62,207 nucleotides of DNA from Candidatus Staskawiczbacteria bacterium (GCA_016196125.1 JACPYG010000005.1:1-62207); one strand, 5' to 3'. Counted from the first letter of the stretch, positions 4,953 through 52,559 are shown. The notes: a model not told the origin generated them from the letters alone. Made by a program: numbers and translations.

Positions 4953-5019
4953 TAGAACATAAAACATGGAACATGGAACAAATCAATTTGTTGCGTGTTA
5001 TGTGTTTTATGTTATGTTA
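4953..5019 (-). repeat. leader heptad-repeat hairpin L1 (upstream of lemA)
   Basis: aacat/ggaacat heptads facing gtgttat/gtgtttt heptads. Same family as 8191, 30366, 45086, 51680 and 56541. Confidence 0.7.
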
Positions 5020-5026
5020 ATTATAA

Positions 5027-7902: not shown

Positions 7903-8193
7903 TTATTCAATTATTGCCAAAATATCTTCTTCTTTGGCAATTAAATATTCTTTGCCGTCAACCTTTATTTCGCTTGGACCGTATTTTTGGAATAAAACCT
8001 TATCCCCCGGCTTTACTGAAAGGGTAATTATTTTACCGTCATCCGTTTTTTTGCCGGGTCCCGCGGCAATTACTTTGCCTTGTTCTGATTTTTCTTTTAA
8101 AGCAGTTTCGGGCAAAAAAATACCAGCTTTGGTTTTCTCTTCTTCTTTAATTGGCTCTATTAAAATATGGTCTGATAATGGTTTTATATTCAT
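7903..8193 (-). CDS. groS: co-chaperonin GroES
   Basis: '[14 protein letters not shown]...TKAGIFLPE...GKV(I)AAGPG'. Track start 8214 (MFYVSCS) lies in the leader repeat. Confidence 0.95.
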
Positions 8194-8268
8194 AGAACAT
8201 GAAACATAAAACATAGAACAAACGATAAGTTTTTCGTAGTTGTTATGTGTTTTATGTTATGTGTTAAT
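8191..8268 (-). repeat. leader heptad-repeat hairpin L2 (abuts groES start codon)
   Basis: On the mRNA strand: aacacataacataaaacacataaca - loop - tgttctatgttttatgtttcatgttctATG. Confidence 0.75.
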
Positions 8269-8840: not shown

Positions 8841-11800
8841 TTAAACTTTGCTTCTGGCTATAATTCTTTCCCTTATTTTATCACGATAAAAGTTATAAAG
8901 CAACAAAATAATAATCGCGGCTAACAAGATTGTTTTCCAATCAACAATTTTTGTCCACCAATATTTAGTTTTTAGTTCAAGATTAATGTGAACGCCGCTG
9001 CCCTCTGCAACTCCAAACGGCTTACCGTCATAACTTAAATAGCCCGGGGCATCGACCTTTAGATAATAATATCCTTCTGGCACTAAGAATGAATATGTGC
9101 CGCGCACATCGGTAGTTTGCGGATTTTCCTGCTGATAATCGCGAGCCGGCCATAATTCATATTGTTTAGTTTCTGAATTCAGCCAAAAGATAGAAACAAT
9201 GGCGCCGGGAATGCGGGTTTCTTTATTTCCGCTTTTTTCGTAAACATAACCTTCGGGATCAATAACAGTAATCAGGCGGATTTCTTTTTTACCCAATTCC
9301 GGGTCTTCAAAATCCATTACGGTGATAATTTCGTATTCGCCGTCGATTACCGGCGCATTTATATCGGCTGTATAAATTCCGTCGCCGTCGGGGTCGGTAT
9401 ATTCAAATTCCAGCAAAACCAGTTTTTCTTCAACCTTAATGGGCTGTTCCTGGACTTTAGCAAAAACCGGATTGGCAAAAATAACCGACGCTAATAAATA
9501 ATTAAGCGGAACTTCCAGAGAATGGGGTTGGCTGGCTTTTGATTTGAATACCACATAACCCTTAACGCTTTTAACCGGTTTGTCTGGTTTTATGACTAAT
9601 TGCAACGGCTTGCCGGAAATAGTTCTGATTTTTTGCTGCGGTTCGCCATTTCCGGCAACAGACAAAGAAATATCAAAATCAATCAATTCACCGCCAGTCT
9701 TGGCAAAAACAATTTCTGACGGCAATTGCTGTTTAACTGTAGCTGGTAATTTATTGATTGGTATTCCTTTTGGCGGAGTAAATTTTCCCGGCGTAATTTC
9801 TACTTGCGATAATCCAAGAGTTTGTGTTAATCCCGGTATTTTTAAATTAGTGTTTGTTAATTTTTGGACATCGGTAATTTTTGCAATACCGACATTTTTA
9901 AATGTTTTTTCTAATTCTGGAAATTTCTGAGCCAGTAATTTAATTTTTGTCGGCAGAGGATATAAAACAAATCTTTTAATGGCTTCCACCGGTAAAAGAT
10001 TCCACTTACTGTCTAAAGATAATTGGGCTTTTTCCGGAATAACAACTATTTCTGTCTGCTTTTCTTCTGCGGGTTTTATTAATTTTACTAATTGTTTTTG
10101 AATTTGGGTAATTTGTTCAGTGATTTTTTTAGATTGCTCCGCTATACTGCCTGGTATTTCTTTTATTTGTTCCACCACTTTTTCCACTGCTTTTTCCGGT
10201 ATCTGAACAATCTGCTCTATAATAGGAGATAATGGAGGTAAAACAGAAACAAGAGACGAATAAGAAGGCGGAGCTCCCCCACCCACAGACCTGACAACAG
10301 AATAGGATGTCTGCGTGTTGGTGCTTGCCGTATCTTTGTTGCCGGAAGAATCATTGCAAGAGATGTATATATCAACGGAACTGCCGCTAACGCTTTCTGT
10401 GTTGCAAGATATTGATGTTGTGCCGTCGCCCGCGCAATCAATATCGCCCGACATATCATCGTATGACTTGTCTGTTGAGGCGGCGCGGCAATCGGCGTTT
10501 TCACTGGTTGTAAAAGTAATTGTTGGAGATGCTGATTGGACAGTGGAACCGGAAGCAGGACTAATGCTGGAAATAACCGGCGCTGTCGTGTCTAAAGTGT
10601 ATGTGAGATTTTCATTGGTAGATGCCGTGTCTTTATTGCCATACAAGGTGTCTTGGCAGGCAACATATACATTTTTTGCGCCGTCTGCGCCAAGGTCGGA
10701 AAGAGTGCAAGATATGGACTGGGTTCCGTCGCCGGTACAATCAGTGTCGCCCGACATATCATCGTATGACTTGTCTGTTGTGGCGGCTCTGCAATCGCCG
10801 TTCTCGTCTAAAGAAAATGTAATTGTCGGAGTGCTGTCTGTTATAGTGGCTTCCGATGCCGGACTAAAACTGGAGGGCGCGGGAGAAGTGGAATCAAATC
10901 CCCACCCTGAATTTCCCGAAACATCGGTGGAATTAGTTCCAGGGTTCCAAGTGGCTCCTCCCGTGGCAGCTGAATCTTGCAAAGACAGGTAATCGCAAGA
11001 TACTGTTCCAGATGATTTAGATAATGTAGCCGCCGTTCCGCCAGATGATGAATTTATTGTGATTACATTGCCAGAAGTGCCAGTACAGGAAAATGTATCA
11101 GAAATAGTTTGAGTTGCAGAAGACGTGAAAGTGACAGTTTTTGGAGGATTTATTGTAAAATTACTAAATGTATTGCTTCCGCTAATGATAACTGCTCCGG
11201 TACCAACTCCGGTAATAGAAAGATTATTATAGGTTCCACCTCCTCCGGCAAATGTTTTGCTGGTTGAAGAAGTGTCGGTAATTGAAATTGTTGAGGTGCC
11301 AGCGGTATATGTTCCAGAATTAGAAAAAACCGTGCCGGTTCCAGAAAGAGTTATCGTATAGCTGGAAGCGTTTAGAATTCCCGTGGTTATTGTGAGAATT
11401 CCTCCTACTGATGTGTCGGCCCCTAATGTGAATGTGGTGCTTGAACTATTAAAAGTTACGCTGTAATAAGTCGTGCCGGCAACCGTAATTGAACTTGATG
11501 TTTCCGGAATATAGTTGACGGTTCCAGTTGATGGCGTAAATGTTCCTGAAACCGCAAACGGTGTTGAAGTTCCAATTAAACTTAAAGTATAAGAACTTAA
11601 ATCTAATTCGTGGCTGGAGTTAATGGTTACAGTAGTGGCTTTAGCTGTCCCTCCCAGTGTTATTTTAGGCGTGGAAGCGCCCGAACCAACGACCACCACG
11701 CCAATATCTTGGTTGGTATTGTCGGTCCAAGTTTTAGACCCTGTGGGATTTAGGGTAATGGTGGCAGGCAAATCAGACTTGGTAAAGGTACCGGCGTTGT

Positions 11801-14800
11801 TTGAAATTGAAAGATTACCGGAAATGTTTAAAGTTGGGTCGTAAGTGGCGTGGTTGACGACTACGGCGTTGGAGCCATCTCCAATGGTTAAATTGGCAGT
11901 ATTAATAGTTTGAGACGACGCAGTTCCTAATGTATATGTTGGCGTACCGGCGGGAATTAAAGATAAATCATTGTAAGTGGTGGAAGTGATTTCAGTTGCA
12001 GAAGTTCCTGTATAAGAAATAGTGCCCGTTGAAGGTGTAAATGTTCCATTTACTATTAAAGGACGAGAACTCCCCGTGCCTGAACCCGTTAAAGTTAAAG
12101 TATTTGAACCGTTGGCAGAAAATGTCTGAGAAGCGTCAATCGTTAATGAAGTAGCTTTGACCGAGGAACCTAAACTAAGCGTGGTAATTACTTCTGCTAT
12201 TGAATAGTTAAAATAAGCATCAAAATTCCAACTAATAGCACCTTCTTGAATCCAAGTTGTAGGGTTAGAACCAGTTACACCGCAATCATAAGAGCCATCC
12301 AGAAAATCAGTTGTATTGTATTCATTACGCCAACCAGTTCCCAAATCAGAAGAAACCGCTATCCAGTATGCAGTACCATTTACCAAAGTATATGTGCCGG
12401 CCTGACTGATAGTGTATCTTGTCTTAGTGGTAGTAAGATCAACCGATCCGCTTATTTCGTCAAGCTTGGTTCCAGGAACTCCGTCTCCATCGCTGTACAA
12501 GGCAAGATATACGGTTGTTGTTCCAGAACCAGAACTTCTTCGGCCATACCAGCTTCCGCTGGCAATAGTAGAACCTGTCGTTCCGCCAAAAGCTGCGATT
12601 TTATATGCTAAACGGCAATTATTAGTATTGTCTTCGCTTGTGTCGGTTGCAGTATTTCCGTAAGTGCCACTGTCGGCAGCATTACCATAAACCGTTACTG
12701 CTCCAATATCCTGACCCGAAGTTGTATCCGTCCACACTTGCGTAATTCCTCCGCTGAAGGTAACGGTACCGCCTTTGGTGTACACCGAACTACCCGACAA
12801 TGAAAAATTTCCCTTATATGTCTGGTTATTACTATTGGCATCAAAGGTACCGGCAGTTTCACTAAAATTACCATCCACGGTTAAGGCAGCCCCCAATTGA
12901 AAGATATCAGTCGCGCCATCTGTGCTGTTAATCGTAAGATTTTTATATGAAGCTGAAAAATAGTCAGTTATTGCATATGTGTCTGCGGCGCTATCCCCGT
13001 CGCCTGTAAAAATAACGGTGGAACCCGAATTCAAGGTTTTTGTAGTGGCGGTAATTGTTTCAGAACCTCTCAACTGTAATATGCCGGAAGTATCAACGGT
13101 CAGCACATTTGTCGCAATCGTGTATGACGCCAAAGACAAAGTGCCGCTCGTAATGGTGACATCCTGGCTTGTTGCGTTCCAGTCGGCATTGCTGGCCAAT
13201 GTGACAGTCCCCGAGCTCTTATCAATAGTAACATCGCCATTAGGTTCGTTGCCGCCATTATCGGTGTATGTCTGGTTAGCCGTACCCGTAAACTTAAGCA
13301 TAGCTGTGCCGCCATCAGCAGCCGTGTCAATCGTCACATTTCCCTGGGCTTCAATGGTACCGGTATTAATCGTACCATTCATAGCATTAAAAGTTCCCAC
13401 GACTATTATAGTATCACCCGAAGTAATTTCTACTATTGCACTACCGTTAGTAATATCAACTGTCAGATTATTCATTGTAACACTAGTATCAACATCAATT
13501 GTGGCTTTGTTAGCCGTAGTTAATGAACCAAATTTAACAGTGCCCGAACCATGATTAAATACGCCGCCGCTCATTGAAAAAAAGGTAGCGGTTGTTGCTT
13601 GGCCAATCAAGAGATTACCGCTGGTAGAGGTAAAGGTGCCGCCGCTAAGCGCGTATGTGCCATTAATATCAATAGTTGAATCGCCGCCAACAAAAGTGCC
13701 TGCGGCTTGCACATAATTACTAGCGCCGACGGTTATTGTAATGCCCGCGTTTTGTGTGATTGTGCCAGAGTAACCGGTATTTATATCAATGCCTGCAACA
13801 TCAAAGTTAGCATTGATAACGGCGCTATTGTCGCAATCGGCATCAAAAATGGCAATATCAGAAGCGCCGGGAACGGTTGCTCCTCCTCCCGTGCAAGAGG
13901 CAGGGTCAGCCGAGGCCCAATTAGCGGTGTCGTTGGTGTTGCCTCCGGCGCTGCCTACCCAATATCTATTGGCATCAACAATAAAATCAATGTCTATGCT
14001 ATTGCTTATTATTTTTAGATCAAAAACATCAGTAGGCGCCTGAAGGTTAGTGAGCAAAACTTTATAAAAGGCTTCTTGGCTGATTTCTTGGAAAGTTGCA
14101 ATAAGCTGGTCGCCCCCGCTTCCGTCGGAATAGACCGGATAAACTTCTATGGTAGCGCCAAGACCTGAACGAGAGTACAAAGTAATGTCATTTTGGCTGG
14201 TCAATATTCTTTCAAAAGTAACTCTTACATATTGGCTGTTTTCTATGGCTGACCAGTTATCGTCTTTATATCTGACTTGGTCATAAATATCTTCTACGAC
14301 ATTTTTGTCTTGGTCTAACTTGAAAGCTTTGGAGATAAAGATTATATCAAATATCTGCTCTGACAGGTGAGGAACAATCCATTCTATGTAATCAAGCTTG
14401 CCGTTGTTATTGGTGTCTTTGGCGGTAAATGGCACTTCCTCATTATTGTTATTTTGCCATTTAATTTGTATTTTATTTTCCTGTCCTATTTTGAATATTT
14501 CCGGTATTTCGGTGAATGCCAGCACATTAGTGTAAGAGTCGGGTGCTGGGCCTTGAGTATCAGGTAAAAATTCGTCCGGCGAGGAAATTGTGACTTTCTT
14601 TCCTTTATTTGTTTCTTGCTCGGAGATTTTTGGAGCCGGCATTTGATAGTCAATTTGCACATACTCATCTTTTTTATTTTCTTGTTTGCTTGCACTGAGC
14701 GAAGCCGAAGTGTCTAAAATATCTGGCAAAGGAAGAGACGCGTCTTCTGCTTCTACTACTGCTTCTGCTTCTACTTCTACTTCTGCTTCTGCTTGCTGTA

Positions 14801-15809
14801 TTATCGGTTGGTCTAAAGAAGAAATTATTTCAACCGGATTTACAGTTGGAGTATCTGGCAAACTTACGATGTCTATGGAATCTTGTGAAATTTCTTGTAG
14901 AGCTGATTCCTGTTCTGCCGGCAATTCAGAGTCCGAAGAATCTTCCGAGTCCGAAGAATCTTCGGACTCGGAGAGTTGTTCAATAATTTGATTGGAAATA
15001 TCAACAAAACTGGCATCTGGAGTTTGAATAACTTCTGGCGATATTTCTTCCGGAGTTGGTGTTTCTTCCGAAGCTGATGTTTCTTCGGGAGTTAATGTTT
15101 CTTCCGGAGTTGGTATTTCTTCCGGAGTTTGTGTTTCTTCGATTATAGGGGCTTGGCCATCATCTGTTGAAATTTGTTCTGTCTCTGCAGAAACACTTTC
15201 GAAGCTGGCAAGAAAAATTTCTTTGAGGTTTGAAAAAATATCAAGCGCAATGTTAGAGGTTGGCAGTTTGTCTTTAGATTCTGGGGATTTTGGCACAACA
15301 TTGGCTAATTTTTGTCTTTGTTTTGAGGTCAGGCTATTTTGGAATAATGGTATTTTTTGAGACAAAATCTGCTCTGCTTCTTTTTTACTTATAACTTTGA
15401 TTTTAATTTGCGTGGCTCCATTTGGCAGTTTTACCAAATATTGATTTGGTTTAATTAAATCTCTCTTAACTAATATGGTATATTTTACAGGCTGGCCCGC
15501 AATGACCGACGAAGTTTGTTTTACGGCCACGCTCTTGATGGTTTTGCTTTCTATTATTTGTTTTTGGTGTTGCAGTATTGCGTAATTTCCTATCCAAATA
15601 GAGACAACTAACAACAAAACAGCAAAGACTGCGCCTCGCAAAAACAATAAAGGGTTAAAAGAAAACAACCCAAAAAACACTGAATTGAATTTAAAACTCT
15701 TTTTTGGCGTAATACGAATCCGAAACAAGAGCGGATTCTTGGCGCCTTGTTCCTCCCTTACTTGTTTTATTTTTATATTAAAAATATCTTGATGATATTT
15801 TTTTTCCAT
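8841..15809 (-). CDS. giant (2322 aa) cell-surface protein, beta-helix-like T/S/G-rich repeats, acidic linkers, C-terminal carboxypeptidase-regulatory-like domain and TM anchor
   Basis: N-terminal TM. PEET/SEDS/AEVE low-complexity runs. Long 'GTxT(F/L)..G' repeat region. A two-copy ~95-aa module 'ITF(S/T)..EN.DCRA..TDKSYDDMSGD.DC.GDGT.SISC'. 'YSFLVPEGYYYLKVDAPGY' near the C-terminal TM. Confidence 0.8.
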   Translation of the reverse strand: MEKKYHQDIFNIKIKQVREEQGAKNPLLFRIRITPKKSFKFNSVFFGLFSFNPLLFLRGAVFAVLLLVVSIWIGNYAILQHQKQIIESKTIKSVAVKQTSSVIAGQPVKYTILVKRDLIKPNQYLVKLPNGATQIKIKVISKKEAEQILSQKIPLFQNSLTSKQRQKLANVVPKSPESKDKLPTSNIALDIFSNLKEIFLASFESVSAETEQISTDDGQAPIIEETQTPEEIPTPEETLTPEETSASEETPTPEEISPEVIQTPDASFVDISNQIIEQLSESEDSSDSEDSSDSELPAEQESALQEISQDSIDIVSLPDTPTVNPVEIISSLDQPIIQQAEAEVEVEAEAVVEAEDASLPLPDILDTSASLSASKQENKKDEYVQIDYQMPAPKISEQETNKGKKVTISSPDEFLPDTQGPAPDSYTNVLAFTEIPEIFKIGQENKIQIKWQNNNNEEVPFTAKDTNNNGKLDYIEWIVPHLSEQIFDIIFISKAFKLDQDKNVVEDIYDQVRYKDDNWSAIENSQYVRVTFERILTSQNDITLYSRSGLGATIEVYPVYSDGSGGDQLIATFQEISQEAFYKVLLTNLQAPTDVFDLKIISNSIDIDFIVDANRYWVGSAGGNTNDTANWASADPASCTGGGATVPGASDIAIFDADCDNSAVINANFDVAGIDINTGYSGTITQNAGITITVGASNYVQAAGTFVGGDSTIDINGTYALSGGTFTSTSGNLLIGQATTATFFSMSGGVFNHGSGTVKFGSLTTANKATIDVDTSVTMNNLTVDITNGSAIVEITSGDTIIVVGTFNAMNGTINTGTIEAQGNVTIDTAADGGTAMLKFTGTANQTYTDNGGNEPNGDVTIDKSSGTVTLASNADWNATSQDVTITSGTLSLASYTIATNVLTVDTSGILQLRGSETITATTKTLNSGSTVIFTGDGDSAADTYAITDYFSASYKNLTINSTDGATDIFQLGAALTVDGNFSETAGTFDANSNNQTYKGNFSLSGSSVYTKGGTVTFSGGITQVWTDTTSGQDIGAVTVYGNAADSGTYGNTATDTSEDNTNNCRLAYKIAAFGGTTGSTIASGSWYGRRSSGSGTTTVYLALYSDGDGVPGTKLDEISGSVDLTTTKTRYTISQAGTYTLVNGTAYWIAVSSDLGTGWRNEYNTTDFLDGSYDCGVTGSNPTTWIQEGAISWNFDAYFNYSIAEVITTLSLGSSVKATSLTIDASQTFSANGSNTLTLTGSGTGSSRPLIVNGTFTPSTGTISYTGTSATEITSTTYNDLSLIPAGTPTYTLGTASSQTINTANLTIGDGSNAVVVNHATYDPTLNISGNLSISNNAGTFTKSDLPATITLNPTGSKTWTDNTNQDIGVVVVGSGASTPKITLGGTAKATTVTINSSHELDLSSYTLSLIGTSTPFAVSGTFTPSTGTVNYIPETSSSITVAGTTYYSVTFNSSSTTFTLGADTSVGGILTITTGILNASSYTITLSGTGTVFSNSGTYTAGTSTISITDTSSTSKTFAGGGGTYNNLSITGVGTGAVIISGSNTFSNFTINPPKTVTFTSSATQTISDTFSCTGTSGNVITINSSSGGTAATLSKSSGTVSCDYLSLQDSAATGGATWNPGTNSTDVSGNSGWGFDSTSPAPSSFSPASEATITDSTPTITFSLDENGDCRAATTDKSYDDMSGDTDCTGDGTQSISCTLSDLGADGAKNVYVACQDTLYGNKDTASTNENLTYTLDTTAPVISSISPASGSTVQSASPTITFTTSENADCRAASTDKSYDDMSGDIDCAGDGTTSISCNTESVSGSSVDIYISCNDSSGNKDTASTNTQTSYSVVRSVGGGAPPSYSSLVSVLPPLSPIIEQIVQIPEKAVEKVVEQIKEIPGSIAEQSKKITEQITQIQKQLVKLIKPAEEKQTEIVVIPEKAQLSLDSKWNLLPVEAIKRFVLYPLPTKIKLLAQKFPELEKTFKNVGIAKITDVQKLTNTNLKIPGLTQTLGLSQVEITPGKFTPPKGIPINKLPATVKQQLPSEIVFAKTGGELIDFDISLSVAGNGEPQQKIRTISGKPLQLVIKPDKPVKSVKGYVVFKSKASQPHSLEVPLNYLLASVIFANPVFAKVQEQPIKVEEKLVLLEFEYTDPDGDGIYTADINAPVIDGEYEIITVMDFEDPELGKKEIRLITVIDPEGYVYEKSGNKETRIPGAIVSIFWLNSETKQYELWPARDYQQENPQTTDVRGTYSFLVPEGYYYLKVDAPGYLSYDGKPFGVAEGSGVHINLELKTKYWWTKIVDWKTILLAAIIILLLYNFYRDKIRERIIARSKV

Positions 15810-20203: not shown

Positions 20204-21661
20204 ATGAATATGAAAGATTTTAAGATATTAACAAAAAACAGAATTCACCCGGTTAAATCCGCCAAAGTCGGTGTTCTGCCAAAGGCAGAACAATTTAACT
20301 GGGTAAATCAGCTCCCAAAAACAACTGGAGTTTATTTGTTTTATGAAAACCCTTCGGAGAGTCATTCGACCCTGAGGGTCTCAGACCCGATGGGCTCAAG
20401 GCAAGAAAAAATTATTTACATAGGCAAGGCAATAAATATAAAAAACAGGGTAAAAAACCATTTCCAACAGCCTAATTATAAGGACAACTTGTTTATAAAT
20501 AAAATTACCAAAATTAGTTTTTTTGAAACCGGTTCAGAAATTGAAGCATTAATCTTGGAAGCCGGTTTAATCAAAAAATATCAGCCAAAATTTAATGTGA
20601 TATGGAAAGACGACAAGAACTATTTTTATGTTGCAATAGCTAATGAGCAAAGACCAATAATTTATATAACGCATCAACCAAAGAAAGAAGAATCAGGCAT
20701 AAAGCATAAGGTATCGGATATACAAAATACTCAATACATAGGGCCATTCGTGGAAGGAACAGCGCTTAAAAAAACTTTGAGGTTTTTAAGGAGGGCTTTC
20801 CCCTACTACACCGCAAGAAAGCATCCTAAAAATAATTGCGCTTATTGCCATTTAGGCCTTTGCCCTGGGCCTAATCCTGATTTGGATGAATACAAAAAAA
20901 ATATTAAAAAATTGGTTTTAATTTTGGGAGGAAAGACCACCGCCTATGGCGGGGTCCCGCTAACAGCAGGAGAAACTGTTTTAAATTCTCTTAAAAAAGA
21001 GATGAAGCAGTTGTCTTTTAAAAAAGAATTTGAAAAAGCGGCAAAAATAAGAGACAAAATTTCTAACCTGCAGCAAGTGATAAGCCACACAAGGGTTATT
21101 GAATCTGAAAAAATCAATCCGCCGGCCGGCGGAGGCAATTGGAATAAAACAGAAAAAATTTTAAATGGGATTGTGGGAATTAAAAATATATCAAGAATTG
21201 AGGCCTATGATATTTCTAATATTCAGGGAAAACAGGCAACAGGCGTTATGATTGTTTTCATTAAAGGAAATCCGGGTAAAAGTTTGTATCGCAAGTTTAA
21301 AATTAAAATCGCGCCAAAGCCGAATGACATAGCGATGCTAAAAGAAACATTAGAAAGAAGATTTGGGCATCCTGAATGGAAACTGCCGGAATTAATTTTA
21401 ATTGACGGCGGAATCGCTCAACTAAATATTGGCATAAAAGTAAAAAACCAGAAAACTGAAACAAAAAAAATCAAGGTGATATCAATTGCCAAAAAATACA
21501 AAGAACTTTTTATTGAAGGAAGGCAAAAACCAATATTGTTAAAAACACTGCCGCAAGAAATTTTCAATTTAATTATAAACCTTGACGACGAAGCTCACAG
21601 ATTTGCCATTTCGTACCATAGGTTTCTTCGGAGCAAGAAAACTATGGGACGAAATACATAG
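20204..21661 (+). CDS. uvrC: excinuclease ABC subunit C (short form)
   Basis: GIY-YIG N-terminus 'GVYLFYE...IIYIGKAINIKNRVKNH', UVR-like 'FEKAAKIRDKISNL', C-terminal endonuclease region 'IEAYDISN...IDGG'. Several in-frame palindromic inserts. Confidence 0.9.
   Translation: MNMKDFKILTKNRIHPVKSAKVGVLPKAEQFNWVNQLPKTTGVYLFYENPSESHSTLRVSDPMGSRQEKIIYIGKAINIKNRVKNHFQQPNYKDNLFINKITKISFFETGSEIEALILEAGLIKKYQPKFNVIWKDDKNYFYVAIANEQRPIIYITHQPKKEESGIKHKVSDIQNTQYIGPFVEGTALKKTLRFLRRAFPYYTARKHPKNNCAYCHLGLCPGPNPDLDEYKKNIKKLVLILGGKTTAYGGVPLTAGETVLNSLKKEMKQLSFKKEFEKAAKIRDKISNLQQVISHTRVIESEKINPPAGGGNWNKTEKILNGIVGIKNISRIEAYDISNIQGKQATGVMIVFIKGNPGKSLYRKFKIKIAPKPNDIAMLKETLERRFGHPEWKLPELILIDGGIAQLNIGIKVKNQKTETKKIKVISIAKKYKELFIEGRQKPILLKTLPQEIFNLIINLDDEAHRFAISYHRFLRSKKTMGRNT
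20247..20304. repeat. palindromic insert inside uvrC codons 15-34
   Basis: cacccggttaaat ... atttaactgggt with an inner hairpin gttctgcc-aaa-ggcagaac. In frame. Confidence 0.7.
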
Positions 21662-21765
21662 GAGGGGTCGGGAGGATTGGGTATCCTCCCGTGTAGAAAA
21701 TTATTCAAATGACCCAAAGGGTGCCCCGGTTTTGAAAGAGCGAGCCGTGGTTAAACGGCGAGCGA
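21662..21765 (+). ncRNA. structured element C1 directly after the uvrC stop codon (unknown class)
   Basis: Paralogue of 27273-27353. Hairpin gggagga-ttgggta-tcctccc covaries with ggggaaa-ttgggta-tttcccc. Shared gtgtagaaaattattcaaa ... tttgaaagagcgagc ... gcgagcga. Confidence 0.55.
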
Positions 21766-21814
21766 CATTGCTTACCACAAAAAACTGCGTAAAAAATATT
21801 TATTGAAGCAGAGA

Positions 21815-27654: not shown

Positions 27655-28680
27655 ATGGAAAAAATCAAAATTGCTTTTTTTGAAACAGAGTCATGGGAAA
27701 AAGATTATTTAGAATCCAAACTGAATGGTTTTGATTTGGTGTTTTTTGAAGAAAAAATCAACCCGGATAATTTAGAAAAAATATCAGATGTTAATGTTTT
27801 GTCTCCCTTTTTATATTCCACTATTGATAAAAAAATTATTGATTCTTTAAAATATTTAAAATATATAGCAACGCGCTCGACTGGCTTTGACCATATTGAT
27901 TTGGAAGTTTGCAGGAAAAATAATATTTTAGTTTCTAATGTGCCGACTTACGGCGTAAATACCGTAGCTGAATATACCTTCGCTTTAATTTTAACTTTAT
28001 CAAGAAAAATTTACCATTCTCTTCAAAAAACAAAAATAGGAGATTTTTCTTTGGATGGATTAATGGGTTTTGATTTAAATGGAAAAACTTTAGGCGTAGT
28101 GGGAACCGGAAACATAGGAAGCCGCGTAATAAGAATTGCCAAAGGATTTGGAATGCAAGTTTTGGCTTATGATATTAAAAAAGACCAAAAATTAGCCCAA
28201 AAAATGGGCTTTAAATACGTGACAATGGACAGTTTATTTAAAAATTCAGATATTATAACTCTTCATCTTCCATATAATAAATTAACCCATCATTTAATAA
28301 ATGAAAAAACTCTAAAATTATTTAAAAAGGGGTGTTATTTGATAAACACATCCAGGGGCGGAATCTGCGACACCAATGCCTTGCTGCAGGGCTTAAAAGA
28401 TGAAATTTTTGCCGGACTGGGATTGGATGTTTTAGAAGAAGAACATTCCATAAGAGAAGAAAGGGAGCTTTTGAGTTCTGACTTTAAAAAAAACTATGAC
28501 TTAAAAATAATTCTCCAGAATAATATTTTAATCAATCAGCCAAATGTTATTATTACTCCGCACAACGCTTTTAACAGCAAAGAGGCGCTAATAAGAATTT
28601 TGGACACAACAATTAAAAACATAAAATCTTTCTCAAAAAATAAATTAATTAATTCGGTAAAAAATAATGACACAGTATAA
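27655..28680 (+). CDS. D-isomer-specific 2-hydroxyacid dehydrogenase
   Basis: 'GVVGTGNIGSRVIRIAKGFGMQVLAYD' NAD fold, 'TLHLPY...HLIN', 'INTSRG', 'TPHNAF'. Track start 27607 trimmed to MEKIKIAFF. Confidence 0.85.
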   Translation: MEKIKIAFFETESWEKDYLESKLNGFDLVFFEEKINPDNLEKISDVNVLSPFLYSTIDKKIIDSLKYLKYIATRSTGFDHIDLEVCRKNNILVSNVPTYGVNTVAEYTFALILTLSRKIYHSLQKTKIGDFSLDGLMGFDLNGKTLGVVGTGNIGSRVIRIAKGFGMQVLAYDIKKDQKLAQKMGFKYVTMDSLFKNSDIITLHLPYNKLTHHLINEKTLKLFKKGCYLINTSRGGICDTNALLQGLKDEIFAGLGLDVLEEEHSIREERELLSSDFKKNYDLKIILQNNILINQPNVIITPHNAFNSKEALIRILDTTIKNIKSFSKNKLINSVKNNDTV

Positions 28681-30361: not shown

Positions 30362-30365
30362 AGTC

Positions 30366-30443
30366 ATATAACACATAGCATAGAACACATAACAAAATTC
30401 GAATTATCGTTTTTTGTTTCATGTTCTATGTTTCATGTTCCAT
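30366..30443 (+). repeat. leader heptad-repeat hairpin L3 (abuts trpS start codon)
   Basis: acacatagcatagaacacataac - loop - gtttcatgttctatgtttcatgttccATG. Confidence 0.75.
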
Positions 30444-31419
30444 GAGAGTTGTATCTGGCATTCAGCCAAGCGGCCAAATTCATATTGGCAACTATTTAGG
30501 AGCAATAAAACAATGGATATCGCTTCAGGAAAAAAACGAGTGCGTGTTTTTTGTTGCTGATTTGCATTCTTTGACTGTTCCCTACGAACCAAAAGAACTG
30601 CAAAATAAAATCATAGAAAAAGTTATTGCCTACATTGCGGCAGGATTGGACCCGGAAAAATCCATTATTTTTGTGCAATCACAAGTAAAAGAACATACCG
30701 AACTTTGCTGGATGTTAAATACAGTTTGCCCAATTGGAGAATTGGAAAGAATGACGCAATTTAAAGAAAAATCCAAAAAGTTTAAAAATAACATTAATGC
30801 CGGATTATTTAACTATCCAGTTTTGATGGCCGCCGACATCCTTTTATACAAAGCCCATGCCGTGCCAGTCGGCAAAGACCAGGAACAGCATGTGGAACTT
30901 GTGAGATCAATTGCTAAAAAATTTAACCAAAAATTTGGCGAAACTTTTCCGGAGCCAAAATCAATGCTTCCAAAAATAGGGGCTAAAATAATGAGTTTGG
31001 CTGACCCTAAAAAGAAAATGTCAAAATCAGACGACCCAAAAAGCTATATCTCTCTATTTGACGAACCAGAAGATATACAAAAAAAAATAATGTCCTCGCA
31101 AACAGATTCCGGCAAAGATGTAATTTACAACATTACAAAAAAACCGGGGATTTCCAATCTCATTGTAATTTACGGTTTACTGGCAGATAAAACAACAGAA
31201 GAAATTGAAAAACAATTCAAAGGCAAAAATTACAGTGAATTTAAAAAATCTTTGTCAAAAACTGTCATAGAATATTTAGAACCTTTTCGCAGAAAACAAA
31301 AAGAACTTTTATTGCGGGATGTTTATGTAAAAGAGATTTTAAATAAGGGAAAACTAAGGGCGGAAAACATCGCCCAAACAACGATTCAAGAAGCCCGTAA
31401 AAAAATGGGTCTTGAATAA
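30442..31419 (+). CDS. trpS: tryptophan--tRNA ligase
   Basis: 'SGIQPSGQIHIGNYLGA' (HIGH-type) and 'KMSKS'. Track start 30421 (MFYVSCS) lies in the leader repeat. Confidence 0.93.
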   Translation: MRVVSGIQPSGQIHIGNYLGAIKQWISLQEKNECVFFVADLHSLTVPYEPKELQNKIIEKVIAYIAAGLDPEKSIIFVQSQVKEHTELCWMLNTVCPIGELERMTQFKEKSKKFKNNINAGLFNYPVLMAADILLYKAHAVPVGKDQEQHVELVRSIAKKFNQKFGETFPEPKSMLPKIGAKIMSLADPKKKMSKSDDPKSYISLFDEPEDIQKKIMSSQTDSGKDVIYNITKKPGISNLIVIYGLLADKTTEEIEKQFKGKNYSEFKKSLSKTVIEYLEPFRRKQKELLLRDVYVKEILNKGKLRAENIAQTTIQEARKKMGLE

Positions 31420-45088: not shown

Positions 45089-45154
45089 GTTACTATGGAA
45101 CATAAAACAAACGACGACGGTTTTGTTATGTGTTCTATGTTATGTGTTATGTGA
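45086..45154 (-). repeat. leader heptad-repeat hairpin L4 (abuts rpoB start codon)
   Basis: Plus strand catgttactatggaacataaaacaaacgacgacggttttgttatgtgttctatgttatgtgttatgtg. Confidence 0.7.
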
Positions 45155-51099: not shown

Positions 51100-51699
51100 T
51101 TACTTTGTTTCTATTAAGCCAGCCGTATTTACTGAAACTATTTTATTTGTTAGCAAATCGGACTCTAAGGCAAAAATAATCTGTGCCCGATTTATGCCTG
51201 GCGACAAACTTGTTATTGTTACGGTGGGATTTGGAGGTTTAAAGTTAATATCTGCCTCTTGGTTATTTACAGTGCCTTCAATTCTATCCATAATGACTCC
51301 TGGCTCGGTTTGGTTAAGGTCTATTGTTTCTATAACACAATCTTGATTAGGCAATTGCTCTCCGCAAATCGCGCCCGAAAAATCATATTGTTGGTCATCT
51401 TGCGCATCGGCATACATTATATATTTTTTATTGCCCAAGCTGGAGCTATCCAGATTTATATAAACTCCGTACCCCTTTGCATTGACTCCTTGCAACTTTT
51501 GCCCTGAAAATCCCATATCTTGAACCCTTCTTAAATCCTGGCTCATTTTATAAACAGCTCTGGTAAGCGTAAATTGGCGGGTAATCTTTGGAAAACTAAT
51601 AACTAAAATACTTGAAAAAATAGTAATAATAAAAATCACCACTAAAATTTCAACTATCGTAACGCCCTTTTTTTCCTTAAAACATGGAACATGGAACAT
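51100..51699 (-). CDS. prepilin-type pseudopilin (GspH/FimT-like)
   Basis: 'MFHVPCFKEKKGVTIVEILVVIFIITIFS'. Track start 51783 would overlap pilD and the leader repeat. Confidence 0.7.
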   Translation of the reverse strand: MFHVPCFKEKKGVTIVEILVVIFIITIFSSILVISFPKITRQFTLTRAVYKMSQDLRRVQDMGFSGQKLQGVNAKGYGVYINLDSSSLGNKKYIMYADAQDDQQYDFSGAICGEQLPNQDCVIETIDLNQTEPGVIMDRIEGTVNNQEADINFKPPNPTVTITSLSPGINRAQIIFALESDLLTNKIVSVNTAGLIETK

Positions 51700-51737
51700 G
51701 GAACAATTTGTTATGTGTTTTATGTTATGTGTTATAT
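51680..51737 (-). repeat. leader heptad-repeat hairpin L5
   Basis: aaaacatggaacatggaacatggaacaatttgttatgtgttttatgttatgtgttat. Spans the pilD stop and the pseudopilin start. Confidence 0.7.
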
Positions 51738-52559
51738 GATTACAAATAAATTCAAATACCACTGTATCAATTCCCGCCCCCATAAAAGAGCCAGAAATGT
51801 TCCAGTAATTAAAAACGGGCCAAATGGCACTTCGCTTTTTAAGTTTTTATTTTTAAAAATAATCAGCCCCACTCCTATTATAGCACCTAAAAAAAATGCC
51901 AAAAATAGAGCGGCCAGAATATTGGGATAACCTAAAAATAAACCCATAAAAAAGGCCAATTTTACGTCTCCAAAACCCATCCATCGCCCGCCGGAAACAA
52001 GAAAGATAAACAAGAAAAAAGCGCAGGCCCCAAGACCGGCCCATAAGGGGTTAAAATTTAAAAACCTGAAGCTAAAAATTAGTTGATATAAAAAAACTAT
52101 TGCGATAGCCGGAAATAAAACTTTGTCTAAAATAATATAACGCTTTAAGTCATAAACAAAAATTATAATCAGAGAACCGGCAATGTAAAATAAAAAAAAC
52201 AAATTTATCAAATATGGAAATTGTAAAATTTCAAATTGATTAAAAATTTCAAATTTTAAATTAAAAATTAAAACAAACATTATGCCGGCTGCCAATTCCA
52301 CCAATGGATACTGGATTGATATTTTTTTATGGCAATACCTGCATTTTCCCCCAAGAAATAAAAAACTAAAAACAGGAATTAAATCCCGCCAGATTAAATT
52401 ATATTTACAATGTGGGCAAAAAGACCTTCCCTTTAAAAAACTTTGCTCTTTTTCTAAGCGATAAATAACGCAGTTTAAAAAAGAGCCTATAATCAAACCA
52501 AAGATAAAAATAAAGAAATTAAAAATTAAAAACATAGAATTATCTAATTTTACCCCCAC
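51732..52559 (-). CDS. pilD: prepilin peptidase (A24 family)
   Basis: 'CPHCKYNL.WRDLIP..S...L.GKCRYC...IS..YPLVE', 'GFGDVKL', polytopic. Confidence 0.9.
   Translation of the reverse strand: MGVKLDNSMFLIFNFFIFIFGLIIGSFLNCVIYRLEKEQSFLKGRSFCPHCKYNLIWRDLIPVFSFLFLGGKCRYCHKKISIQYPLVELAAGIMFVLIFNLKFEIFNQFEILQFPYLINLFFLFYIAGSLIIIFVYDLKRYIILDKVLFPAIAIVFLYQLIFSFRFLNFNPLWAGLGACAFFLFIFLVSGGRWMGFGDVKLAFFMGLFLGYPNILAALFLAFFLGAIIGVGLIIFKNKNLKSEVPFGPFLITGTFLALLWGRELIQWYLNLFVII

Follow-up and report, generated by a model that had tools for sequence, protein, structure and literature searches.

A small structured element between duplicated gene ends in Staskawiczbacteria and other Patescibacteria

Prophages, integrative and conjugative elements, and genomic islands are known to land in conserved genes and in transfer-RNA (tRNA) genes while carrying with them, in attP, the end of the target gene, so that the gene stays intact and its displaced end persists as a direct repeat; such integrative elements are kilobases long, encode an integrase of their own, and address one fixed target through a short, identical crossover core. 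Patescibacteria have tiny genomes with few recognised mobile elements. In a 62,207-nucleotide stretch of DNA from a Candidatus Staskawiczbacteria bacterium (GCA_016196125.1 JACPYG010000005.1:1-62207), which originates from a groundwater metagenome and is hereafter termed the window, two copies of a small structured element are located at the 3' ends of uvrC and of the gene of a solute-binding protein (SBP), each copy being followed by a second version of the respective gene end. An interpretation made from the sequence by itself (hereafter the sequence-only reading) had proposed that this element inserts near the 3' ends of genes and brings a replacement tail plus a stop codon, leaving the target gene intact and the old tail to decay. 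The analysis reported here confirms the observation, discloses an element family richer than the one first described, and partly supports the interpretation: the element is a variant of those integrative elements that restore the end of the target gene, but one without an integrase or a fixed target. Unlike the integrative elements, moreover, the cassette measures 130-300 nt, encodes no protein, is found in more than 15 genes at both 5' and 3' ends, and contains an extra inverted segment.

We arrived at the family by three routes: exact-pattern scans of genomes and metagenomes, a protein search with translations of the element—which search recovers the spurious open reading frames (ORFs) called across copies—and a covariance model; up to 10 kb of sequence was examined around each copy, and all the evidence comes from metagenome assemblies. 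Some 38 copies were found beyond the two in the window, about 40 in total, every one of them in assemblies of Patescibacteria and mostly of Staskawiczbacteria, at 2-3 copies per assembly and with cores more than 95% identical between genomes. Two scans of viral contigs yielded no copy of the element, and carriage by phages was therefore set aside.

Gene ends on either side of the element

The full layout, which we designate T1-T1'-core-T2, begins with T1, a gene end contiguous with its gene (the start of one example being ATTTCGTACC), and continues with T1', an inverted copy (8-30 nt) of the beginning of T1 that adjoins the 5' end of the core; T2, the second direct copy of the gene end, lies 3' of the core and begins at most 3 nt from its last base. 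T1' and T2 begin at the identical target coordinate, and the right junction of the element is exact. The tail-element-tail arrangement that had been noticed in the window recurs in the family, since a clear T1/T2 pair, of 17-99 nt (median 30 nt) and 67-100% identity, is present in 25 of the 34 scored copies; what had been overlooked was the inverted T1' and, at uvrC, the derivation of the stop codon from T1' and the core. Between T1 and T2 there are only 100-260 nt of noncoding sequence, with no tyrosine or serine recombinase.

The site in uvrC (20204-21661, plus strand; an ORF of 485 aa whose translation matches Pfam GIY-YIG, UVR, and UvrC_RNaseH_dom) is the most informative. T1, the replacement UvrC tail (I SYHRFLRSKK), occupies positions 21608-21641 of the plus strand, contiguous with the gene; T1' (21635-21655, plus strand) pairs with 21608-21628 at 19 of 21 positions and adjoins the 5' end of the core (21656-21766, plus strand), so that the last six codons of the gene and its TAG stop (TMGRNT*, 21641-21661) are encoded by T1' and the first core bases. 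T2 (21767-21808, plus strand) is the displaced resident tail, IAYHKKLRKKYLLK; among the UvrC proteins lacking the element, the closest ones have exactly this C-terminus (AHRFAI[T/A]YHKKLRKKYLLK*), a correspondence even stronger than the mirrored reading frame that had been recorded behind this copy. This T2 contains no stop codon, with CAG where the relative L052—whose uvrC site is empty—has TAA, and differs from the L052 tail by six codons, all of them synonymous.

The comparison with a distant host, locus L043, reveals which parts belong together. The UvrC proteins of the window and of L043 are 54% identical, and the nucleotide identity, of 55-70% in the upstream gene, is at least 90% over a stretch that opens some 30 nt ahead of T1 and takes in T1, T1', and the core; T1 itself is almost identical in the two hosts, and both of the T1' mismatches are also present in L043. 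The T2 of the window, by contrast, ends in KKYLLK, as in its 70-75% identical element-free relatives, whereas that of L043 ends in KKALGLDNKA* (the ALGLD type), as in L043's own nearest relatives. The tail type SYH[RK][FL]LR.KK.M.RN. was encountered only in the UvrC proteins of element-bearing loci (P0132, P0136, P0151, P0239), and filled uvrC sites are interspersed with empty ones among the relatives. Because T1 is common to distant uvrC hosts and T2 is host-specific, T1-T1'-core is the moving unit and T2 the displaced resident end, so that the carriage of the target gene's end that characterises integrative elements is found here in the form of a common T1-T1'-core and a host-type T2. The central idea of the sequence-only reading, namely that a replacement tail with a stop codon arrives, the gene remains intact, and the old tail is left downstream, holds best at this site. 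For the same reason, we dropped as a general rule an interim model in which T2 travels with the core and T1' is generated in place by fold-back synthesis on the recipient's T1, a model that may hold at the SBP site.

At that second site, the gene of a family-5 SBP with a peptidoglycan-binding domain (25292-27259, plus strand; 655 aa; Pfam SBP_bac_5 and PG_binding_1) ends with the functional tail NWYIKTRRVWK* (T1, 27224-27259, plus strand), followed by T1' (CAATTTGC, 27260-27267, plus strand; complementary to GCAAATTG at 27221-27228) and by a short-form core (27266-27354, plus strand). T2 (27356-27391, plus strand) encodes NWYIKTKRVWK* and is identical to T1 at 30 of 36 positions, with three synonymous changes and one Arg-to-Lys codon change; this tail repeat had been correctly recognised, its end having been placed at 27390, one base short. 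At its filled SBP site, L061 likewise has CAATTT(G/T) directly behind the stop codon.

The search for empty sites that had been suggested as a check was carried out, and the empty orthologous sites support mobility: besides the uvrC site of L052, the dnaX site of L049 is empty, 25 of the 27 closest SBP loci are empty as judged by eye, a covariance-model scan of 79 SBP loci detected one filled site (L061), and in run X3 a variant contig from a co-occurring strain is devoid of window positions 27260-27401 and has a different spacer. The X3 empty-site contig matches window 27172-27259 with 0 mismatches and thus has the T1-type tail; both SBP tail types are native in relatives. Taken alone, this empty allele fits T2 as the incomer equally well, so that at the SBP site either copy of the tail, whose duplication is real, may be the one that came in.

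Two regularities of the family concern the relation between the segments. Firstly, T1' follows T1 and not T2: over 357 compared positions the reverse complement of T1' has 28 mismatches to T1 versus 61 to T2, and it sides with T1 at nearly all of the 34 positions where T1 and T2 differ. Secondly, the codon differences between T1 and T2, which include CGC/AGA arginine swaps, are 66 synonymous versus 31 non-synonymous, with ratios per gene of 10:1 in gyrB, 6-8:0-2 in dnaX, and 5:0 in L061, an SBP locus in which both copies encode the lineage-specific tail NWYVQTHRVWK* with five synonymous differences. Since the differences are mainly synonymous, T2 is not a long-decayed relic but a recently working gene end, in line with the recent displacement of a functional end from a different lineage, so that of the "decayed duplicates" described earlier the duplication stands and the decay, for the most part, does not. 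In L017 the duplication is perfect over 18 nt and in L036 over 22 nt. In addition, most loci have a T1-T2 period that is not divisible by 3, which makes it a coincidence that both relic tails of the window are in frame with their genes. In L021, the first copy of L026, L028, L038, L008, and L033, the last 8-15 gene bases before T1 often resemble the 3' end of the core (for example, GGCAAAAAAC versus GGCGAACGAC and GCTAAGGCCGCCAAG versus GATAAGGCGAGCGAC), which could reflect a target preference or microhomology at the birth of a cassette.

One conserved core occurs with the spare ends of more than 15 different genes, most of which we recognised by terminal translation, with tool confirmation for the window genes and for contigs with precomputed Pfam hits only. 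The 3'-end targets comprise uvrC (window, L043, L054), uvrA (L044), gyrB (L042, L026), rpsI (L008, L028), rplK (L038, L026), rpmB (L035, L029), rpsG (L031), and the genes of a Mur ligase (L030), a histidine kinase (L019), a dehydrogenase (L034), and the SBP (window, L061); the 5'-end targets, with the gene on the opposite strand, are dnaX (L020, L022, L039) and dinB (L016, L021); and tRNA 3' halves are targeted in L017, L018, L036, L037, and L046. Insertion near the 3' ends of genes, as initially proposed, is accordingly found, but not exclusively. Without exception (some 20 tails, 5 heads, and 5 tRNA 3' halves), the gene body is on the 5' side of the core, which is not what a symmetric target duplication predicts. 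The DnaX N-termini of relatives were compared in order to tell which head of L039 is native; the closest homologues include both the MSVV and the MNNLV types, and either head may be the native one.

Several target sites have peculiarities of their own. In three different tRNA genes (L017 5131-5163, equal to L032; L046; and L048 1-105), the T loop of the downstream relic tRNA half is interrupted after GGTTC by an insert of 10 nt (TAGCGAAGCG or TAACAAAGTG). This insert resembles the 3' end of the core (GAGCGAAGCGAC) and may have been left behind by the chemistry of insertion or by a series of insertions. In L016 (150-440) T1 and T1' derive from the 5' end of dinB and T2 from the last 35 codons of uvrA, with no uvrA body within the approximately 200 nt of contig upstream, and in L033 (7000-7400) tail fragments of elongation factor G flank the core on both sides, with no fusA body and an adjoining HEPN/MNT pair; these mismatched flanks suggest that copies located at different sites have recombined and thereby rearranged the genome.

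Anatomy and fold of the core

The paralogy of the two window copies, which had been asserted from inspection, is borne out by their alignment—which extends over the shared motifs 3' of the hairpin—by a 21-mer common to both (CCGTGTAGAAAATTATTCAAA; two occurrences versus 0.01 expected by chance), and by the covariance model of the family, which has only two matches in the 62-kb window, at 21656-21766 (79.7 bits, E 2e-17) and at 27266-27354 (103.6 bits, E 2e-23). The core, of 82-170 nt across the family, starts with ACA, a purine heptamer R1 (AAAGGGG), and GTC, after which come the hairpin R2-TTGGGTA-Y (GGGGAAA / TTTCCCC), a conserved single-stranded segment (GTGTAGGAAATTA), the hairpin P3 (TTCAAAACC / GGTTTTGAA, with either a 3-nt loop or an insert of 20-47 nt), and the terminal helix P4 (GGAGCGAG...CGAGCGAC), with whose final base the element ends. 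In the first copy, R1 is AGGAGGG and, after GTC, the hairpin GGGAGGA-TTGGGTA-TCCTCCC is followed by GTGTAGAAAATTA, a P3 enlarged by an insert of 20 nt, and a terminal helix rich in G.A that ends ...GCGAGCGAC; in the second, R1 is AAAGGGG and GTC precedes the hairpin GGGGAAA-TTGGGTA-TTTCCCC, a P3 (TTCAAAAAC/GTTTTTGAA) that includes a compensated pair, and a terminal helix (AGAGCGAG-CTTG-CGAGCGAT) whose outer A-T pair is compensated. The three compensated pairs and the identical loop claimed for the first hairpin were thus found as described.

Across 31 distinct copies the pairing is realised in 97.5% of the cells, versus at most 63% when the partners are slid as a control, and seven core pairs have changed on both sides. 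G-C pairs alternate with tandem G.A pairs in P4, and we read this segment as a G.A helix because the G.A positions become Watson-Crick in L036 (TCCT/AGGA) and L033 (CTCG/CGAG) and because the outer pairs covary, from G-C to A-T in the second window copy, L019, and L026b and from C-G to T-A in L021, L027, and L042. The shortest form of the core contains GCGAAGC, which is known as a DNA mini-hairpin of unusual stability. R1, for its part, is the mirror image of R2 rather than its complement and changes together with it, the covariation being perfect in the three main R1/R2/Y variants: AAAGGGG/GGGGAAA/TTTCCCC (n=22), AGGAGGG/GGGAGGA/TCCTCCC (n=5), and AGAGGGG/GGGGAGA/TCTCCCC (n=4). This pattern is the one that an intramolecular purine-motif triple helix would require, in which the third strand would run antiparallel to the purine strand and form G.G-C and A.A-T triads; such helices are favoured in DNA over RNA.

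The class of this structure had been left open, with a search of Rfam as the suggested check. In that search the window had no match at the gathering score, and four element loci had none even at E <= 1, so that introns, ribozymes, riboswitches, small RNAs, and other known RNA families were discarded. A role as promoter or terminator was likewise discarded, no promoter-like or terminator-like site having been detected at the core of either window copy. A derivation from uvrB was also rejected: five metagenome pattern matches correspond to the UvrB motif GYCxGVENYS, with a spacing of 8 rather than 7 nt, and are an artefact because the search pattern allowed a variable gap.

Among small bacterial repeats, the MITEs (miniature transposable elements with inverted repeats) and the repetitive extragenic palindromic sequences (REP/REPIN) resemble the element in being small, noncoding, structured, multi-copy, and non-autonomous and in lying often just outside reading frames. 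MITEs, however, have family-wide terminal inverted repeats and a short, fixed duplication (2-10 bp), whereas the ends of the present core (5' ACAAAGGGG... and 3' ...GCGAGCGAC) are not inverted repeats of each other, the inverted repeat that does flank it—T1' together with the start of T2—is made up of target sequence and varies from locus to locus, and the duplication, with its 17-99 nt (median 30 nt) and 67-100% identity, is unlike theirs. REPs, which are mobilised by RAYT (Y1) transposases, are palindromes of 20-40 nt with a 5' GTAG in tens to hundreds of copies; here the core is of 82-170 nt, has GTGTAG 3' of the hairpin on the plus strand, and is present 2-3 times per assembly. DNA uptake sequences, for their part, are taken up preferentially by the competence machinery and are overrepresented genome-wide; the copy number of the present element, at 2-3 per assembly, is low.

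Pieces of the core 3' helix were also met in isolation. In L023 (7160-7200) a solo piece, AGCGAGCCCCGCCATAGATGGGGCGAGCGAT, lies between TAGAACA direct repeats, and in the window (21813-21928), just 3' of the first T2, GGCGAAGCGCC is contained within a 16-bp inverted repeat (AACCCCATCACCAATT / AATTGGTGAGGGGTT). This helix may be a mobile module in its own right, in which case the variable inserts of P3 and P4 would be explained.

A probable mobile cassette and its alternatives

We consider it reasonably probable that the element is a small, protein-free mobile cassette that carries a spare gene end and displaces the resident one. The comparisons described above establish how the segments are arranged and oriented, that T1' is linked to T1, that T2 is native, that the sites are polymorphic, and that T1-T1'-core has been transferred between distant hosts. 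The moving unit would consist, in order, of T1 (17-99 nt), T1' (8-30 nt), and the structured core (82-170 nt), and would enter another genome in the homologous gene, precisely at the point that corresponds to the start of the spare end; that gene would then read on into T1, which would provide its last (or first) codons—at uvrC even the stop codon would come from T1' and the start of the core—while the resident end, T2, would be shifted 3' of the core so as to abut its last base (...GCGAGCGAC followed directly by T2) and would no longer be used. The left join is probably made by homology, because that junction lies within conserved coding sequence and exhibits no visible scar.

As to the means of spreading, we propose with moderate confidence host DNA uptake followed by RecA-mediated homologous recombination. 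Genes for RecA and for proteins of type IV pili are present in the window, cultivated Saccharibacteria have been demonstrated to be naturally competent (PMC10633639), and the acquisition of insertions by transformation drops geometrically with insert size, which dependence favours very short inserts (PMC5850275). On an incoming single strand of the form gene-T1-T1'-core-T2, the gene body and T2 would act as the homology arms, while the T1:T1' hairpin, which would begin exactly at the gene/T1 boundary, together with a compact core—the hairpin with its mirror-repeat third strand, P3, and the terminal G.A/G-C helix—would block the pairing of T1 with the recipient's gene end, with the result that the cassette would be looped in rather than trimmed off. 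Such a shielding would give T1' a role and provide a reason why it tracks T1. In the attP hairpin of the CTX phage and in the attC sites of integrons, a stem formed by one strand similarly recreates a target duplex beside a structured loop, as T1' does with the target start, but those systems depend on XerCD or IntI, no sites of which we recognised here, whereas the present stem differs by target and no recombinase is linked to it. The mirror repeat and the GCGAAGC-type mini-hairpin would suit single-stranded DNA.

A more daring version of this proposal, which we advance tentatively and regard as rather unlikely, is that of a selfish DNA that dispenses with a transposase and spreads by natural transformation, the folded single-stranded core and the T1' clamp blocking the pairing of the spare end; a core composed of a purine-motif triplex and a G.A helix would cause the cassette to be looped in, and the ends of essential genes and of tRNAs, which are conserved more highly than any other sequence in a genome, would function as cross-species landing pads. 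There is a substantial chance that the mechanism is new in kind, and the literature that we searched contains no description of such a small mobile element in Patescibacteria.

A number of considerations weigh against this account. The steps of the mechanism are all deduced, and the model offers no explanation of how a cassette for a new gene first arises. There is no drive in plain homologous recombination, and transformation is considered more apt to delete insertions than to add them (PMC4774983). At the divergence of the uvrC hosts (about 60-70% nucleotide identity) recombination should be very inefficient, so that the transfers would have gone via intermediates or through another enzyme. 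The perfect 35/35 duplication in L021 looks like a fresh target duplication, and the X3 empty allele with its T1-type tail fits only if the donor lineage co-occurs in the aquifer. With regard to the core, only a few variant classes covary in the manner of a triplex, a reading deduced from sequence rather than from biophysics, and the two G.T/G.U pairs on the plus strand are as compatible with a DNA form as with an RNA form.

The strongest competitor, which we nonetheless think unlikely, is a non-autonomous transposon or retroposon whose bare core would be inserted by a trans-acting enzyme (a reverse transcriptase, an HUH/rolling-circle nuclease, or another transposase): target-primed synthesis at two widely staggered nicks would create a long duplication, T1 and T2 being the same at birth, T1' would result from snap-back synthesis at the 5' junction, and all the T1/T2 differences would have arisen later. 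The exact 3' end with a duplication of variable length (17-99 nt), the perfect duplications of L021 (35/35), L017 (18 nt), and L036 (22 nt), the start of T1' always at the target coordinate of T2, the cores more than 95% identical across genomes, and the one clear 5'-truncated remnant (L023, with the 3' helix only, between TAGAACA repeats) are all in keeping with such an origin, and short and long interspersed nuclear elements (SINEs and LINEs) likewise combine a precise 3' end, a variable and sometimes long duplication, occasional 5' truncation, dependence in trans, and carriage of flanking sequence. Unlike those retroposons, though, the element has no A-rich tail and no source of reverse transcriptase was found for it, its duplicates are xenologous and mostly non-identical, and its orientation is tied to gene ends. 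Moreover, the neutral decay of T2 should yield mostly non-synonymous changes, indels, and stops, whereas the codon changes are 66 synonymous to 31 non-synonymous; hosts with 54% identical UvrC proteins have T1 in common and T2 specific to each; a symmetric duplication leaves unexplained why the gene body is always 5' of the core; and no reverse transcriptase or transposase recurs near the approximately 35 loci or occurs among the 21 larger window ORFs scanned, an unrelated Tas/IS110-like gene excepted. Target-primed insertion with snap-back synthesis may even so be the birth route of new cassettes, alongside their spread by recombination.

A linked autonomous partner was sought by an all-against-all comparison of the ORFs around the approximately 35 copies, which yielded housekeeping genes only, and none of the ORFs recurring near the copies, within windows of up to 10 kb, was transposase-like. 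A free-standing LAGLIDADG endonuclease ORF of 164 aa occurs in L021 (1286-1780) and L048 (4938-5417), with 76% identity; in L021 it follows T2 at a distance of 30 nt, but in L048 it is 5 kb away from the element; it was consequently rejected as a partner and probably has no connection with the element. Homing introns and inteins with co-conversion also enter the same site of a conserved gene in new genomes and co-transfer the donor's flanking coding sequence; the present element differs from them in not being spliced (there is neither frame preservation nor a match to an intron family), in having no homing endonuclease, and in retaining the resident sequence.

Dual-guide RNAs, that is, the tigRNAs and the bridge RNAs of IS110, combine two target-derived segments of opposite strands with a scaffold containing non-canonical G.A pairs (PMC12045711), and the core could by analogy be a guide-RNA scaffold with T1' and the start of T2 as its dual guides, the duplications then being products of RNA-guided recombination or of nuclease-triggered repair. 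In agreement with that possibility, T1' and T2 flank the scaffold and jointly address both strands of one target stretch, the G.U pairs are on the plus strand only, and a 548-aa protein matching TIGR_Tas_endo is encoded about 600 nt downstream of the first copy. The core also contains tandem G.A pairs, which are reminiscent of kink-turn-type motifs. We nevertheless deem this explanation decidedly improbable: the Tas-like protein has no homologue in about 130 other loci, including about 40 bearing the element, and no effector is linked across loci; there is no array; neither window copy has a promoter-like or terminator-like site, nor was there an Rfam match at E <= 1; and the putative guides, of 8-99 nt, stem from the insertion site itself, T1' matching the adjoining T1, so that such an RNA would be directed at the locus encoding it.

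Yet less credible, and largely refuted by the pattern of presence and absence, is an ancient, non-mobile structural or regulatory element of the host—a terminator, an insulator, or a DNA-uptake signal—whose flanking ends would stem from local duplication and gene conversion. The very strong conservation of the core, its position always outside the functional reading frame, and a T1:T1' hairpin that encloses stop or start codons and could affect expression would agree with such a function; but the orthologous sites are empty in most relatives and in the co-occurring strain, filled and empty uvrC sites are interspersed, the cassette is far more alike between hosts than is the flanking gene, and the core bears no terminator signature.

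Finally, the pairing of two near-identical gene 3' ends close together, with both relic tails of the window in frame, recalls the template and variable repeats of diversity-generating retroelements or a translational read-through or bypass joining the two tails, explanations that deserve practically no credence and that were refuted together with that of an artefact: the differences are not adenine-specific (A in T2 at 65 of the 178 differing positions and in T1 at 40), no reverse transcriptase (no RVT match) exists among the 21 larger window ORFs and no neighbouring ORF recurs, the targets are housekeeping genes, tRNAs, and 5' ends, and a T1-T2 period that in most loci is not a multiple of 3 precludes read-through, bypass, or an intron-like removal.

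Surroundings and significance

Between the displaced uvrC tail and a holin-like gene the window contains a GC-rich island of about 2.7 kb (21809-24530; 53% versus 37% GC) that is absent from the relative L052 and starts at precisely the point at which a stop codon would be expected in the old uvrC tail. Its ORF of 548 aa (22348-23994, minus strand) matches NCBIfam TIGR_Tas_endo over residues 393-506 (E 3.9e-36; 125 bits, the cut-off being 100), with a weak similarity to IS110 and no Pfam match at E <= 0.001, and is flanked by direct repeats (22057-22338 and 24121-24340; 73-77% identical), each with a 15-bp hairpin, which could be its guide RNA genes. Behind the second copy, tRNA debris surrounds a tRNA-Leu (27491-27575) over positions 27392-27660, with 27404-27447 resembling a tRNA devoid of the anticodon arm; the X3 variant contig skips 27433-27599, the tRNA-Leu region, which is a hot spot of strain-level structural variation. 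Elsewhere, short tandem arrays of related heptamers (TGTTATG, AACATGG, CATAAAA; 3-6 units), often as facing pairs, occupy many intergenic regions of the window (4955-5024, 8191-8266, 30365-30444, 45124-45153, 51681-51738, and 56541-56630), and an ORF of 2322 aa on the minus strand (8841-15809) has no Pfam match at E <= 1e-5.

What distinguishes the family is that one conserved core of 82-170 nt stands at the ends of more than 15 housekeeping genes and tRNAs, each time with a matching spare gene end. The core is, in addition, a candidate for an unusual nucleic-acid fold, in view of a mirror covariation like that of a purine-motif triple helix, and the element is probably a source of rearrangements, as its copies can join flanks from different sites (L016). 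If the cassette model is true, a protein-free element would colonise essential genes harmlessly and move between species, which behaviour would account for gene-end fragments and for odd C-termini such as that of a UvrC ending in TMGRNT*; and if the cassette does spread with no transposase, it would represent a new principle of mobility and a natural design for marker-free insertion into essential genes.

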